64,000 nucleotides of DNA, from NCBI RefSeq assembly GCF_011045215.1, contig NZ_CP049201.1; one strand, 5' to 3'. A program made the position numbers and the translations under genes. The notes under the pieces are model-generated. The model had not been told where the DNA came from. It did not search any database and saw only the letters and a list, made by a program, of their open reading frames with translations. This document shows positions 12,952 to 51,851 of the stretch, one piece after another (positions within the stretch are counted from its first letter, which is position 1; the number at the start of each line of letters is the position of its first letter). The DNA comes from Escherichia coli. Lineage in GTDB: Bacteria; Pseudomonadota; Gammaproteobacteria; Enterobacterales; Enterobacteriaceae.

Positions 12952-12990
12952 AAATAAAAAAACCTGCTGGTGAGGCAGGTTCTTTTATTT
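12952..12990. terminator. hairpin (aacctgc tggtgag gcaggtt) flanked by an A-tract and a T-tract; candidate bidirectional terminator upstream of yehL
   Basis: Seen in sequence: 7-bp stem, aaaaaaaa upstream and cttttattt downstream. Confidence 0.4.
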
Positions 12991-13276
12991 ACTATTTTCA
13001 GGCCTAACACCACAGCCTGTGCAACATCGTGTTCCAACGAACGAATTATAACCACGGCTGGACCCCGTTGCAATTAAGATAATGAGATTTATAATCCAGA
13101 CCGTTGGGACGTTGCGCCGGATCGAACCTATTTCAAGTCCTGGCTACCGGACGGGTGGTGCTGCAGGTGGTGCCCTGATCCGGAGTGCAACATCGTGGTC
13201 CAACATACGTAAACCAGTATCGACAGGCAGTGTAAGGGTAAGGTGCTGGTGTTGCGCTCCTTAATAAGGAGAGCGG

Positions 13277-20540: not shown

Positions 20541-23500
20541 TTAATCAAACAGTGATTCAATGTCGTTAATCAGCTCGCTGGCGGTGATGTCGTCGAGCAT
20601 GGAGAAAGTGGGTGAGGATTGTTTACCATAGCGATCATAAGGGGCGGTGATTTTTACGCTTTCGACAGGCAGCAGGTCGCTATACCCCGTTTCGCCATAA
20701 ATTAATGAAAAAGGTTCCGTTTCAAGTTCGAGAGCACCATAAGGGGTAGATTTGCGCATCGCATAGACGCTGCCGCTTTCTTCCAGACGTTGCCAGCCTC
20801 GGCGTTCCAGCCCGACAATGCGTCCGGCCTGGCAGAGACGTCCGTTCCAGCGTGACAATTCATGGACATTACGTTCGTTATCAGCAAGGTGGTAACTACC
20901 ACGTTCGAACTGTTGGAAAGGGGGAAGCAGTTCGTAATCAACGTAAATTTGCCTGAATGCAGCGGCGGATTCAGGGGGGATTTCCAGCACATGCGGTATA
21001 CCGATGTTTCCTGCTGGCAGCGTGAATAACTCATCCTGCGCATCGCTGTAAGTGCTGTCTTCTGCCACGCGAAAACAGGTGATAAGAGCGTTTTCATCGT
21101 TATAACCCCCCCATAACAGCCGTCGGGTTAAGTGACGTACCAGCGGATGCTCCACCAGAAACAGGCGGAACTGCTCTGCCGTCCAGCGTCTGCGCTGGCA
21201 CATAGCCTGTTCCAGACGGGTAATTTGCTGGCTGGCGATAGCACGAACATCTTTTTTCAACTGTTTGAAGAGATTAACTGCGTCAGTTGCCAGTGTTTTA
21301 TCATCGCTCTGGTTTGGCTTAGGTAAATCTTTCAGGACTTTGCCGTTTGCATCGCACACTACAGGTTTTAAGGTTTCGTCAAAACCAACGGTGAATTTGC
21401 GGGGGCCGAAATCCAGTGTCAGCGAGCCACTGCTATCAAGCCCTAAATCTGGAGCCAGGCGGTCTTCCAGTTCAGCCATAGTCAGCCCACGGTTTTCAGC
21501 AACTATGTTGATTTTCTCGCGGGCATGTTCCTGTAATGCTTTGAATTTAATTTTTCGCGCGATGCCATTAAGCAGCATTAGCGCAACATCGCTGCCAATA
21601 TCAGCTAATACATCCAGCCCGGACACCGCCCGTTTATGCTGGGATTCCCCAGGCCAGGCGCGGATAAGCGGGGTTAATTTACGCGCGGTGTCGTCATTGC
21701 CTAAAATCCCAAGCGAAGTAAATGCCCAGTTTTCTTTTGCGGGTGCGCCAGCTTCTGTCCAGGCGGTATACAGATCCCAGCCAAATTCAGCCAGTGATTC
21801 GCGGGTGAAGATTTCTCTAATGATATCCAGCCCAGCGTAGGCGGTAATGTCGCGAGGAAAGCTCAGCATAGTGCCGAGGTGGCGCATAGCGTCATCTGAC
21901 AGAGGCAGGTTGTTACTTTTAAGCCGTGGTCTGCGCCACAAGGTGAACTGATAAAAGCCGGACAGTGGGGCGATTTTAGCGGGATATTCTTCCAGTGGGT
22001 CGCTATCGAACAATGTTGCCAGCGCAGCTAAAACATCAGGTTGGTTGTATCCCTGGGCGATTTCCTCAATCGTTTCTCGCTGGTTTAAATTCACCAGCAG
22101 ACGAAGCGCCTGGCGGGCACAATCACGATCTTTTCCCTGTTTGCCCAGGGCCACAGGAAGTAGCCCGGCGGCGGCATGGCGTGGGTAGTCAGTTAGCCAG
22201 TTTCGCGCATCTTCATAAGACATTTTTTTCTGTAGCTGTTGCGCCATCGGTAAGGCCAGTTCACTGACACCGAGGAAGAAGGTGAAGAAGCACAGGCGTC
22301 GTGGATTACGTTGCAGACAGGTCATAAATGCAGGTATGGCGGCGCTACCAAAAATTGCCAGAATATTTTCCTCACCAGAGTAGTTATCTTCTTTGACTAT
22401 CTGGTTAAGAAAAGAAATGGCCTGTTGACCAGGCAGGTAACAGAGGGCCATGAGATCCCAGCTTTTGTATGCATTGTTATGGTATTGCGCAAATTCAGCA
22501 TTGAGTGCTGGAAAATCGAAGCGTAGCAGGGCATCAACGGCGCTTTGTGGGGCCGGAATTTTTTCGTATATTTTCTCTCCGCTTTCCCGCCATTTTTCAA
22601 AACCAAGATGCCACAGTATTTGTTGCTCCGGTGTAAGCGGTATTAATTGTTTCTCCCAGCTTGCTTTTTTCATCGGCGGCAGGTCGGTAAACAATGTTTG
22701 TTTTGTCGCCTGCTGTTGGGCTATTTGCTGGAAGCGGGTGACAAGGTAAGTACGGGTTAGTCTTTTGGCAATCTCGGGAGTGACATCAGAAACAGAAGGA
22801 ACTGGAAGCACAGGAAGATCAAACACAGGCGTATTTTTCTTTTTCTCTTTGGTCATCCAGGGCGGCGAAACAAGCAGTTGTGGCAACATATCCGCAGTGG
22901 CGTATTCACACACTTCAGTCACAGGTTGCAGGCGACATTCAGATAAGATGCCAGCGGCTTTGGCATTCACCCAGGGAATGACGTCGCATACTAACTCTGG
23001 CGTGGCGGTAATCAGTTTGACAAGCGCTTTACGCCACTCTTTATCTTCATGTATTGCCAGCAAAGTAGCATAAGCCGCAATAGCCGCAGCGGGATGCTTT
23101 TGACTGGCCTTGCTTAAGTATTCCAGGTGCTTTTTCTTACCAATTACACCGAGGATCAGAATTTGAATCGCATCCGGGTGATTAGTTTTCCATAGCCATT
23201 TGACAAGATTTTCAGTCTCGCTGATGCGTTCGAAGAGATAAGTGGGATTGTCAGAATGGTCTTCCGTAAACTCAAGAAGTATCCGGCTTACACCGCGCAC
23301 CCCATTATTTGCCAACAACATTGCCAGATAAGCGCGAAAATTACGAAAATCACGATACAACGGTGGGAAGTCGTATTTTTCCACTGTACTCAGAGCAGTA
23401 TCATCGGTTATCACCAGTCTTAACCAGGCCATCGCCGGGACGTTTTGGTCTGCATAGCGTAGAGCTATAGCATGGGCGATATCCGGGCGTTCAGGGAGCA

Positions 23501-24350
23501 GTAACGCCGCAAAAGGTTGCCGTGCGGGGGATAGCGTCGGAATGGCGGTGAGTACTTTATCTACACAGCGTTGCCACTCATCTTCTGAAGCGAGTGAAAG
23601 ATGATGACATAGACGTTGATGCCAACTAGGTAGCGATTCTGCTTCGTGATTAGGTGGAATGATGGTGGTTACTGCGCCTTTTACTGGTTTATATTTGAGT
23701 TGAAGGGCAAAAAGGGCGATTTCAACGGCGCTTTCCAGACCACAGCGAATGACTAAGTCATCGACCAGTTCATCTGCAGAGTAAGAGTTCCAAAAACTCC
23801 AGAGCAATGCTGCATCAGATTGCGCACTCCCTGTCTGTTGATTATCCAGAATTCGCCTTTGTAACTCAGCAAAAGCCTGCTGCCAGTTTTCAGGATAAGA
23901 GCGGTAATTGTTGTCGGGATCATATGCCCTGGTGTTATCTGCAATACGCTTCCATATCTCACCGTCTTTGCGCAGATAATTGATCTCTCTGGGGCGAGAG
24001 CGATGAGGAAAAGCAAATCGGTTAATATCGTCAGTTACCGGAATAACTGCATCATCAGCCAGCCACGGGCGTTGGTTTTTACTCTCAGGGGAAGATTCAA
24101 CTTCAGGAGTGGCTTTGGTGATGGGGGAGATATGCACGTTTGCTGAAGCATTTTCCACATAGCCTTTTTTCGTTTTCTCTGCGATCAGCTTAAGCTCCGC
24201 TTTTGCCGCTGCCGCAGCATCTGCAAAACTTTTTATCTGGCTTTGCCCTTTGGTGCCAACTTTTCCCCAACTGATATGCAACTCGTTTCCCTGTTGCTCC
24301 ACCGCCCAGAATTTATGTGATTTTTCGTCCTGATAGATAAAGTGTCTCAT
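20541..24350 (-). CDS. molR: giant WGR-domain/DUF4132-type protein, intact here; K-12 counterpart is the molR pseudogene
   Basis: 1269 aa uninterrupted ORF adjacent to metG; N-terminal WGR-like domain (MRHFIYQDEKSHKFWAVEQQGNELHISWGKVG...); symbol assigned from position next to metG as I recall the K-12 map. Confidence 0.7.
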   Translation of the reverse strand: MRHFIYQDEKSHKFWAVEQQGNELHISWGKVGTKGQSQIKSFADAAAAAKAELKLIAEKTKKGYVENASANVHISPITKATPEVESSPESKNQRPWLADDAVIPVTDDINRFAFPHRSRPREINYLRKDGEIWKRIADNTRAYDPDNNYRSYPENWQQAFAELQRRILDNQQTGSAQSDAALLWSFWNSYSADELVDDLVIRCGLESAVEIALFALQLKYKPVKGAVTTIIPPNHEAESLPSWHQRLCHHLSLASEDEWQRCVDKVLTAIPTLSPARQPFAALLLPERPDIAHAIALRYADQNVPAMAWLRLVITDDTALSTVEKYDFPPLYRDFRNFRAYLAMLLANNGVRGVSRILLEFTEDHSDNPTYLFERISETENLVKWLWKTNHPDAIQILILGVIGKKKHLEYLSKASQKHPAAAIAAYATLLAIHEDKEWRKALVKLITATPELVCDVIPWVNAKAAGILSECRLQPVTEVCEYATADMLPQLLVSPPWMTKEKKKNTPVFDLPVLPVPSVSDVTPEIAKRLTRTYLVTRFQQIAQQQATKQTLFTDLPPMKKASWEKQLIPLTPEQQILWHLGFEKWRESGEKIYEKIPAPQSAVDALLRFDFPALNAEFAQYHNNAYKSWDLMALCYLPGQQAISFLNQIVKEDNYSGEENILAIFGSAAIPAFMTCLQRNPRRLCFFTFFLGVSELALPMAQQLQKKMSYEDARNWLTDYPRHAAAGLLPVALGKQGKDRDCARQALRLLVNLNQRETIEEIAQGYNQPDVLAALATLFDSDPLEEYPAKIAPLSGFYQFTLWRRPRLKSNNLPLSDDAMRHLGTMLSFPRDITAYAGLDIIREIFTRESLAEFGWDLYTAWTEAGAPAKENWAFTSLGILGNDDTARKLTPLIRAWPGESQHKRAVSGLDVLADIGSDVALMLLNGIARKIKFKALQEHAREKINIVAENRGLTMAELEDRLAPDLGLDSSGSLTLDFGPRKFTVGFDETLKPVVCDANGKVLKDLPKPNQSDDKTLATDAVNLFKQLKKDVRAIASQQITRLEQAMCQRRRWTAEQFRLFLVEHPLVRHLTRRLLWGGYNDENALITCFRVAEDSTYSDAQDELFTLPAGNIGIPHVLEIPPESAAAFRQIYVDYELLPPFQQFERGSYHLADNERNVHELSRWNGRLCQAGRIVGLERRGWQRLEESGSVYAMRKSTPYGALELETEPFSLIYGETGYSDLLPVESVKITAPYDRYGKQSSPTFSMLDDITASELINDIESLFD

Positions 24351-34083: not shown

Positions 34084-34908
34084 TTATCGCATTATGCCCA
34101 TGAAGCCATGTACGCCCATATACACACCAACTAAGCCAATCAACAGACTGGAAAAATAGGGGGCGCGTTTAGCGAGAGTGTTAAATCCGCTCCAGCGTTT
34201 TGCGACCTGTTGAACGCTGATTGCTGCGCCAACGCCTACGGTGACAAGCGTTAACGCCAGGCCAATGCTGAAACTGACGACCAGTGTTGCGCCCAGTGTC
34301 AGGGCTTTCAACTGAATGCATATCAACAGCACGGTAATTGCTGCCGGGCAGGGGATAAGGCCACCGGTTAAGCCAAATAACAAAATTTGCCAGTTGGTGA
34401 CCTCTCTACCATCAAAGCGTCGTTTAATGTCATTGGCATGGGCTCGTGCATGGGCATCCTGATACTCGCCATGTTCGTGATGGTGATGATGTCCATGGTC
34501 GTGGTGATCTTCGTGATCGTGGTGATGATGTTCATGATCATGCTCGTGCATATTCTCCAGCCAGTTGCGTTCGCCGCGCCAGGTACGCCAGAACATCCAG
34601 AACGCGGTGCCAATAATGATCACTGCGGAAATCAGCTGGAGCCACGGTTCTGCTGATTGAGCAGTAAAGCGCTTGCTGATCACCATCCCGCCAAAGGCAA
34701 CCAACCAGACCACCGCGGTATGCGAAATGGTTGCTGCCAGTCCGAGCATCACCGCCTGTTTAATGGTGCCTTTGATGGCGATGATAAACGCCGCCATCAT
34801 CGTTTTTGAGTGCCCTGGTTCCAGGCCATGAAGCGCACCAAGTAAGATGGCGCTGGGGATGAAGAACCAGGCGTTTCCTTGCTGAAGAAGAGTTGTAAAT
34901 TCGGTCAT
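34084..34908 (-). CDS. rcnA: nickel/cobalt efflux permease with His-rich cytoplasmic loop
   Basis: 274 aa; HEHDHEHHHHDHEDHHDHGHHHHHEHG loop; NiCoT-like TM core. Confidence 0.9.
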   Translation of the reverse strand: MTEFTTLLQQGNAWFFIPSAILLGALHGLEPGHSKTMMAAFIIAIKGTIKQAVMLGLAATISHTAVVWLVAFGGMVISKRFTAQSAEPWLQLISAVIIIGTAFWMFWRTWRGERNWLENMHEHDHEHHHHDHEDHHDHGHHHHHEHGEYQDAHARAHANDIKRRFDGREVTNWQILLFGLTGGLIPCPAAITVLLICIQLKALTLGATLVVSFSIGLALTLVTVGVGAAISVQQVAKRWSGFNTLAKRAPYFSSLLIGLVGVYMGVHGFMGIMR

Positions 34909-34945
34909 GATAATAATTCTTAGTATTAATTCGGCAATCTGATTC

Positions 34946-34960
34946 TACTCCCCCCCAGTA
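34946..34960. promoter_or_regulatory. RcnR operator site 1 (TACT-G6-N-AGTA type, read as TACTCCCCCCCAGTA on the plus strand)
   Basis: Matches the published RcnR recognition motif; located in the rcnA-rcnR divergent intergenic region. Confidence 0.75.
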
Positions 34961-34965
34961 CCTGA

Positions 34966-34980
34966 TACTACCCCCCAGTA
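34966..34980. promoter_or_regulatory. RcnR operator site 2 (TACTACCCCCCAGTA)
   Basis: Second copy of the TACT-G6-N-AGTA motif 20 bp from site 1. Confidence 0.75.
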
Positions 34981-35028
34981 GATTAATAGTGCTATGATTT
35001 TTCATATTCTTGTTAACCAGGTGTTGCC

Positions 35029-35301
35029 ATGTCTCATACAATCCGTGATAAACAGAAACTGAAAGCGCGTGCCAGTAAGATTCAGGGCCAGGTCGTGGCG
35101 CTCAAGAAAATGCTCGACGAGCCGCACGAATGCGCTGCAGTTTTACAACAGATTGCTGCTATCCGTGGCGCGGTAAACGGCCTGATGCGGGAAGTGATTA
35201 AAGGTCATCTGACAGAACACATTGTTCACCAGGGCGATGAACTAAAGCGTGAAGAAGATCTGGATGTCGTTCTGAAGGTGCTGGATTCTTATATCAAATA
35301 A
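35029..35301 (+). CDS. rcnR: Ni/Co-responsive transcriptional repressor (CsoR/RcnR family)
   Basis: 90 aa ([41 protein letters not shown]...); divergent from rcnA. Confidence 0.9.
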
Positions 35302-35389: not shown

Positions 35390-35523
35390 CAACCAAACGA
35401 CTCGGGGTGCCCTTCTGCGTGAAGGCTGAGAAATACCCGTATCACCTGATCTGGATAATGCCAGCGTAGGGAAGTCACGGACCACCAGGTCATTGCTTCT
35501 TCACGTTATGGCAGGAGCAAACT
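35390..35523 (+). promoter_or_regulatory. TPP (THI-box) riboswitch in the thiM leader
   Basis: Leader contains ctcggggtgcccttctgcgtgaaggctgagaaatacccgtatcacctgatctggataatgccagcgtagggaa, the characterised E. coli thiM aptamer, followed by the SD-sequestering expression platform. Confidence 0.85.
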
Positions 35524-43337: not shown

Positions 43338-43460
43338 CCCGTAGGACGGATAAGCCGTTTACGTCGCATCCGGCAACCTATGCCTGATGCGACGCTGACG
43401 CGTCTTATCATGCCTACACAGCGCTGCCACGTATGTTTACGCCGCATCCTGCATAAAACC
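43338..43460. repeat. BIME: cluster of REP palindromic units between fbaB and gatY
   Basis: Recognisable REP units gtaggacggataagccgtttacgtcgcatccggcaa and gcctgatgcgacgctgacgcgtcttatcatgcctaca plus a partial third. Confidence 0.7.
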
Positions 43461-51730: not shown

Positions 51731-51817
51731 AAAAAATAAGCCCGTGTAAGGGAGATTACACAGGCTAAGGAGGTGGTTCCTGGTACAGCTAGCATTTTAT
51801 GGGTTATGTTTTTCAGC
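51731..51817 (-). ncRNA. cyaR: Hfq-dependent sRNA CyaR (RyeE)
   Basis: Minus-strand sequence gctgaaaaacataacccataaaatgctagctgtaccaggaaccacctccttagcctgtgtaatctcccttacacgggcttatttttt matches CyaR as I recall it, including the intrinsic terminator. Confidence 0.85.
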
Positions 51818-51851
51818 GAAACGGATGATAACCTTAATAAATGCAGCTGTA

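Follow-up and report, generated by a model that had tools for sequence, protein, structure and literature searches.

The window analyzed here, the whole 64-kb stretch of DNA under study, comes from an Escherichia coli chromosome and carries the gene order yehA–rcnB–rcnA/rcnR–thiM–thiD. The Ni/Co efflux permease gene rcnA and the gene of the metal-responsive repressor RcnR are transcribed divergently, and the 120 bp between them are the exact gap between two ATG codons, that of rcnA on the minus strand, ending at 34908, and that of rcnR on the plus strand, beginning at 35029 (table 1). The second best NCBIfam model for the rcnR product, that of FrmR, reached 76.5 bits against a cut-off of 133. 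The RcnR translation contains a RASK motif at residue 14 as well as His3, Cys35, His60, and His64, four residues that the literature includes, along with the N-terminus, in the ligand set of RcnR. Downstream of rcnA, the start assigned to rcnB is an internal ATG of a long ORF, and RefSeq places a 339-bp rcnB at the same position. The 221 bp around the intergenic sites described below are 100% identical to many E. coli genomes in which RefSeq annotates rcnR and rcnA; thousands of E. coli genomes have these annotations at the identical locus, and this region is present in 5,363 of 5,426 complete E. coli genomes. In particular, the control region, comprising both sites and three promoter regions, is identical to that of E. 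coli K-12, with the window being the reverse complement of the K-12 orientation.

Table 1. Positions in the window of the rcnB, rcnA, and rcnR genes and of the elements of their control region.
Feature	Position	Strand	Description
rcnB, periplasmic accessory protein, 112 aa	33527–33865	−	downstream of rcnA; Pfam PF11776 RcnB, E = 1.8e-18
rcnA, Ni/Co efflux permease (NicO family), 274 aa, His-rich loop	34084–34908	−	Pfam PF03824, E = 7.8e-70; NCBIfam NF007454, 559.7 bits (cut-off 195)
rcnA–rcnR divergent intergenic control region, 120 bp	34909–35028		bounded by the flanking ORFs; flanked by RefSeq-annotated rcnA and rcnR where E. coli loci are identical
rcnA P1 start (K-12 2183912)	34935	−	measured; 27-nt leader
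Inferred −10 of rcnA P1, TAGAAT (−12 to −7)	34942–34947	−	shares two bases with the AGTA half-site of site 1
RcnR operator site 1, rcnA-proximal	34946–34960	−	TACTGGGGGGGAGTA; plus strand TACT-C7-AGTA, C7 run 34950–34956; exact pattern match
rcnA P2 start (K-12 2183891)	34956	−	measured; 48-nt leader; first G of the site 1 tract
Spacer between the sites, CCTGA, 5 bp	34961–34965		length conserved; first four bases vary, A34965 conserved
Inferred −10-like hexamer of rcnA P2, TAGTAT (−14 to −9)	34965–34970	−	overlaps the AGTA half-site of site 2
RcnR operator site 2, rcnR-proximal	34966–34980	−	TACTGGGGGGTAGTA; plus strand TACT-A-C6-AGTA, C6 run 34971–34976; exact match
Inferred extended −10 of the rcnR promoter, TGcTATGAT	34990–34998	+	TGnTAnnnT kept across species
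rcnR promoter start (K-12 2183841)	35006	+	measured; 23-nt leader
rcnR, Ni(II)/Co(II)-responsive repressor, CsoR/RcnR family, 90 aa	35029–35301	+	NCBIfam equivalog NF011613, 197.3 bits (cut-off 138); Pfam PF02583 Trns_repr_metal

Several other elements of the window were recognized by Rfam models: a TPP riboswitch between rcnR and thiM (35393–35489, plus strand; RF00059, 71.2 bits) and, all above their gathering scores, the CyaR sRNA (51734–51819, minus strand; 100.7 bits), OrzO-P, the antitoxin RNA of a type I toxin–antitoxin pair (12956–13031, minus strand; 99.9 bits), and naRNA4 (43344–43414, plus strand; 62.7 bits). Within rcnA, the His/Asp-rich loop of the permease (approximately residues 121–147; 34471–34539) is encoded by imperfect tandem repeats of 9–21 nt. 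Loop length varies among E. coli strains, whose annotated rcnA genes measure 789–858 bp (262–285 aa), and this coding repeat looks more variable in length than the operator tracts considered below. A rearranged locus was found in E. coli ET979 (NZ_CP100876.1, 3001–3760), where an IS1A lies directly upstream of rcnA and where the operator region and rcnR are absent, hypothetical genes being found instead, before the TPP riboswitch and thiM; in this strain rcnA is presumably no longer controlled by RcnR.

Two 15-nt sites of the intergenic region match TACTGGGGGGNAGTA exactly on the minus strand, as established by direct reading and by a pattern search of the 64-kb window, which contains no further match to this motif even when up to two mismatches are allowed. 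A chance occurrence of the pair was rejected, the expectation being 0.18 matches in the window and two or more matches being found in only 1 of 100 shuffled sequences. A repeat finder also returned the sites as a direct repeat with a start-to-start spacing of 20, and the plus strand across them reads GATTC-TACT-C7-AGTA-CCTGA-TACT-A-C6-AGTA-GATTAAT. An initial annotation of this DNA had described two TACT-G6-N-AGTA elements, 20 bp apart, between the divergent pump and repressor genes. Both elements proved to be perfect at the positions listed in table 1, and the distance of 20 bp holds from start to start but not as a gap, the latter being the 5-bp spacer. Similarly, both G6 tracts fit the motif, but the run of site 1 is a 7-mer, in which the N is also G/C. 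On a larger scale, the outer flanks of the sites (34934–34949 and 34977–34992; GCAATCTGATTCTACT and AGTAGATTAATAGTGC) form a 16-nt inverted repeat with 75% complementarity, so that the two-site operator as a whole has a pseudo-dyad.

To follow this arrangement across species, we compared 80 loci encoding RcnR relatives (76–100% identity), with one genome per species. The exact array TACTCCCCCCCAGTA, 5 bp, TACTACCCCCCAGTA was found upstream of rcnR in 54 of the 80 species, and the geometry (site 1 with its C7 run, 5 bp, and TACT-N7-AGTA) in 64; site 1 itself was unchanged in 72 loci. The spacer showed 23 different 5-mers among the 64 species sharing this geometry, always with a length of 5 bp, and a single Escherichia sp. 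locus had a spacer of 6 bp. In an alignment of 65 sequences, identity to the window base was 90–100% over 34941–34960 and 34965–34982, dropped to 10–40% in the spacer (34961–34964) and in the flanks (34924–34940 and 34983–34988), and rose again only at the TGnTAnnnT −10 element, at the Shine–Dalgarno sequence of rcnR and over 18 bp around the rcnA start codon. Site 1 alone was kept in Morganella, Edwardsiella anguillarum, Erwinia psidii, and one Enterobacter sp., and the tract of site 2 was interrupted in Mangrovibacter.

Three further features emerged from the same comparison. A short extension of the sites, TC-TACT...AGTA-GA, is kept across species. In the Kosakonia/Phytobacter group (nine loci, including related taxa), a third, degenerate element, AACT-C7-AGTT, lies 21 bp past site 2, and the rcnR ATG is about 105 bp away from site 1 instead of about 84 bp, so that three sites are the natural arrangement in this clade. 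Finally, the 18 bp at 34906–34923 are as conserved as the RcnR sites. Overlapping Fur-box-like sequences (34903–34927; matching GATAATGATAATCATTATC at 14 of 19 positions on either strand) lie on the rcnA start codon and leader, and they may be related to the link between rcnA and iron/Fur that Koch and colleagues reportedly described in 2007.

Tract-Length and Copy-Number Alleles in E. coli

The initial annotation had suggested that strains be compared for tract-length polymorphism, and tract length does vary among the ~5,360 complete E. coli genomes surveyed. We searched these genomes with queries of 98–99 nt, consisting of positions 34905–35003 and edited versions thereof, for which a match in the band at or above 99% identity corresponds to an exact match. 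The allele of the window (C7 in site 1, C6 in site 2) was found in 4,505 genomes (84%). For the variants, the counts are upper bounds, each about 10 too high, because partial alignments with 100% identity also fall into this band: up to 118 genomes have C6 and up to 104 have C8 in site 1, whereas up to 26 have C5 and up to 39 have C7 in site 2. One-base tract-length alleles are thus present in ~5% of complete E. coli genomes. The remaining ~570 genomes differ in other ways, and five that we sampled carried substitutions in the flank (G34941T, two genomes), in the spacer (G34964A, two genomes), or in a half-site (A34977G, one genome). The A34977G query returned 11 records in the top band, of which only 2 among the first 30 matches listed were exact over the full length; this half-site substitution is found in only 2 of ~5,340 genomes. 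Slippage at the two runs is the commonest way in which half-sites or tracts change in E. coli. The claim that the tracts are prone to slippage agrees with these one-base alleles, but it has to be set against a tract length that is strongly conserved across species.

The site 1 alleles recur under particular strain labels: C8 occurs in several independent assemblies (at least three) with the label O121 or O121:H19, as well as in avian, porcine, and wildlife isolates, and C6 recurs in O111-labelled strains (O111:H- 11128, RM9322, and 8E) and is also found in other human, animal, and environmental strains. Copy number varies too, a third operator copy being present in 6 of ~5,340 complete genomes from several backgrounds. 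A 20-bp duplication gave rise to it in O111:H8 8E and O157:H7 NE 1092-2, where it was read directly, and in EC26, N39, and N47, as judged from match length and identity; in WW2, the third operator stems from a 23-bp duplication.

One may ask whether the length variants are mostly homopolymer errors of long-read assemblies, the operator being effectively invariant in E. coli. The longest site 1 runs, C9 in 64EVA and C11 in 21EVA, are likely assembly errors because rcnR is annotated as frameshifted in these same two assemblies, a sign that they are prone to indels, and some singleton variants, such as that of ATCC 43889, are found in backgrounds that are otherwise standard. As a control, we used the only other C7 run of the window (21106–21112), which is located in the coding sequence of a DUF4132 gene (20541–24350, minus strand). 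This gene is variable, and a 99-bp probe (21060–21158) matched 1,577 of 5,426 genomes, ~500 of them at 95–99% identity and ~1,077 at 80–90%. No exact C6 or C8 allele of the control run was found among the ~500 genomes that have this gene allele (95–99% identity), whereas ~20 variants would be expected at the site 1 rate of ~4%; as the run is coding, this result bounds sequencing error and not the neutral rate of slippage. The recurrence of C8 in at least three separate O121 or O121:H19 assemblies and of C6 in at least three O111-labelled records, O111:H- 11128 and RM9322 included, also speaks against miscalls, and duplications of 20 and 23 bp cannot be homopolymer miscalls at all. Given the control without variants, the recurrence in O121 and O111, and the multibase duplications, these data suggest that most operator length alleles are real and that generic assembly error is an unlikely explanation for them.

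If the alleles are real, the tracts might act as a contingency switch, in which frequent reversible slippage of the C7 run of site 1 and the C6 run of site 2 would toggle RcnR repression within a clone, so that subpopulations would express the efflux pump constitutively. Length alleles of both tracts do exist among complete E. coli genomes, the strains carrying them come from varied hosts and sources, a distribution suggestive of recurrent origin, and they are far commoner than the half-site substitution seen in two genomes. We nevertheless consider such a switch highly improbable. Homopolymer tracts that undergo slippage at high frequency usually have 8 or more nucleotides, and the operator tracts, with 7 and 6 nt, fall below this length and are shorter than classical contingency tracts. 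Moreover, ~84% of the genomes share one allele, the same tract length is found in most of the 80 species, and the recurrence of C8 in O121 and of C6 in O111 resembles what stably inherited alleles would show more than what rapid switching would. None of the matches listed in a full-text search connected rcnA with phase variation or with slippage at homopolymers, and a poorly targeted search on rcnR and laboratory evolution returned nothing relevant. Because one allele dominates, because tract lengths are kept in most Enterobacterales sampled and because a contingency locus would usually have longer runs, we take the alleles to be occasional and for the most part stable polymorphisms that are subject to purifying selection, rather than a phase-variation switch.

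Promoter Overlap and the Proposed Mode of Repression

The positions of the sites relative to transcription were deduced from a map of K-12 transcription starts (Kim et al. 2012, supplementary file 2), which gives three starts in this region, each printed with the 50 nt upstream of it. All three upstream strings were found verbatim in the window; the read counts behind the starts are low (11, 12, and 25) and come from noninducing conditions. Given these mapped starts, the sites lie over the −10 and −35 regions of the promoters of both genes, the hexamers being our assignments: site 2 spans −40 to −26 relative to the rcnR start, and the ATTC at 34942–34945, complementary to part of the −10 proposed for rcnA P1, is conserved across species. 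Each AGTA half-site on the rcnA strand would then double as part of a −10 hexamer, and the conservation of the half-sites could partly come from this second role. Two other promoters proposed by a promoter scan were rejected, a minus-strand TTGCCG/TATTAT pair, whose start would fall within the rcnA coding sequence, and a plus-strand promoter inside rcnR; in both cases the mapped starts and the conservation profile point elsewhere.

The mapped rcnR start coincides with an A/G polymorphism at 35006. Queries including 35004–35010 had exact matches in 3,854 genomes, ~650 fewer than the 4,505 of queries ending at 35003, and a G is present at 35006 in O157:H7, 2010C-3142, and M10.

We conclude, with a probability of roughly 96%, that these two elements make up the tandem type 1 operator at which RcnR, a repressor sensing Ni(II) and Co(II), acts in the E. 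coli chromosome, and that RcnR, once bound, would block both promoters. This conclusion is based on the exact motif, unique in the window, on the equivalog-level identification of the flanking genes and on the 100% identity to other E. coli loci, as well as on the motif known from the literature, the positions of the start sites, the conservation across species, the existence of a plasmid copy (see below), and the rarity of half-site substitution. That the 15-mers are primarily promoter elements, namely two tandem −10 hexamers and a spacer, with only a secondary resemblance to repressor sites, is barely credible: each AGTA half-site does lie in a −10-like hexamer (TAGAAT or TAGTAT) correctly placed for a mapped start, but conservation is equally high in the distal TACT half-sites and over the entire G tracts, neither of which are promoter hexamers, RcnR is favored by the dyad symmetry as well as by the binding and mutagenesis results in the literature, and PrcnA is described as a weak promoter.

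The tandem RcnR operator suggests the following mode of action, for which binding, stoichiometry, and the response to metal are taken from the literature, and the sequence, genes, K-12 identity, start positions, and conservation from the present analysis. Without metal, one RcnR tetramer would occupy each TACT-G6-N-AGTA site. Site 1 would cover the −10 of the main rcnA promoter, and transcription from the second rcnA promoter starts within it; site 2 would cover the −10 of this second promoter together with the −35 region of the rcnR promoter. Because the sites overlap core elements of both promoters, bound RcnR would block RNA polymerase in both directions, presumably by occlusion, and thereby repress rcnAB and rcnR. 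Binding of Ni(II) or Co(II) to RcnR would lower its affinity for DNA and free both promoters.

How the natural alleles might act on this arrangement can be considered for site 1. A one-base change in its tract would shift the TACT–AGTA spacing from 7 to 6 or 8, would alter the 20-bp register of the two sites, and would also alter the spacer of rcnA P1, the tract being located between the −10 and −35 of this promoter. As three spacings would be altered at once, some functional effect of the one-base site 1 alleles is plausible from the sequence. Binding need not be lost, since the half-site spacing described for type 1 sites across the family ranges from 6 to 9 bp. We put forward, as a tentative proposal that we think rather less likely to be right than wrong, that the slippage alleles (C8 of site 1 in O121 STEC, C6 in O111, the site 2 changes, and the three-operator arrays) may be heritable regulatory variants that shift the basal level of the efflux pump or its Ni/Co threshold of induction in different E. 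coli lineages. If they alter expression, they would illustrate how metal homeostasis is tuned from one lineage to another.

Comparison with Known Systems

The element described here is already known, as it is the same as the operator characterized in K-12, where the flanking genes and their divergent arrangement are the same and the control region shows no differences. Later papers trace this tandem type 1 operator to Iwig and Chivers (2009, J Mol Biol 393:514) and to Blaha et al. (2011, Biochimie 93:434), and they state that the motif TACT-G6-N-AGTA occurs twice between rcnA and rcnR, that RcnR binds with one tetramer per site via the TACT/AGTA inverted repeats, that it reads the shape of the A-form-like G tract, and that the shared operator represses both rcnA and rcnR. 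Binding of apo-RcnR, which has been published in vitro, and its release by Ni(II) or Co(II) have been reported for the identical K-12 sequence. The architecture of RcnR autoregulation and rcnA repression recognized in the initial annotation is supported, the gene identities, the K-12 identity, and the presence of the published motif all agreeing with it. The operator sets the threshold of Ni/Co efflux in E. coli, represents a model type 1 site for the reading of G-tract DNA shape by CsoR/RcnR-family repressors, and is described as already in use in synthetic biology as a cobalt-inducible part. What the present analysis adds is limited to a modest list of natural alleles (C6, C8, and C9 or longer in site 1; C5 and C7 in site 2; three-site arrays), a ready-made spacing series with which to study how strictly RcnR requires a given tract length and a given number of sites.

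A close parallel is found on an IncHI2 plasmid (mcr-9 context), which carries rcnA and rcnR with the same twin operator, TACT-C7-AGTA, 5 bp, TACT-A-C6-AGTA, between the divergent genes. This copy differs from the chromosomal one by a nucleotide identity of only ~77%, by its spacer AAATA, and by an RcnA loop that is larger by ~95 aa. At the protein level, a sequence search found no RcnR structure among PDB sequences; the best matches of this RcnR among solved structures are FrmR (5lcy/5lbm) and InrS (5fmn), which belong to the same fold family but respond to different effectors, formaldehyde for FrmR and Ni for InrS.

The type 2 operators described for CsoR in Streptomyces lividans and Bacillus subtilis are recognized by repressors of the same family and, like the sites studied here, are G/C-tract pseudopalindromes with AT-rich GTA/TAC dyads. 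As described, they consist of two short G/C tracts that are 2–4 bases apart, with ~11 bp between dyads, and bind two tetramers per site, whereas the RcnR sites have one uninterrupted tract of 6–7 nt and 7 bp between dyads and, according to the literature, bind one tetramer each. A different kind of likeness exists with the homopolymer contingency loci formed by promoter tracts in Neisseria, Haemophilus, and Bordetella, in that a G/C homopolymer lies between or within promoter elements and that a change in its length would alter both spacing and regulator binding. Unlike these loci, the rcnA–rcnR tracts are 6–7 nt long, one of their alleles is dominant, and the alleles look stable within lineages.
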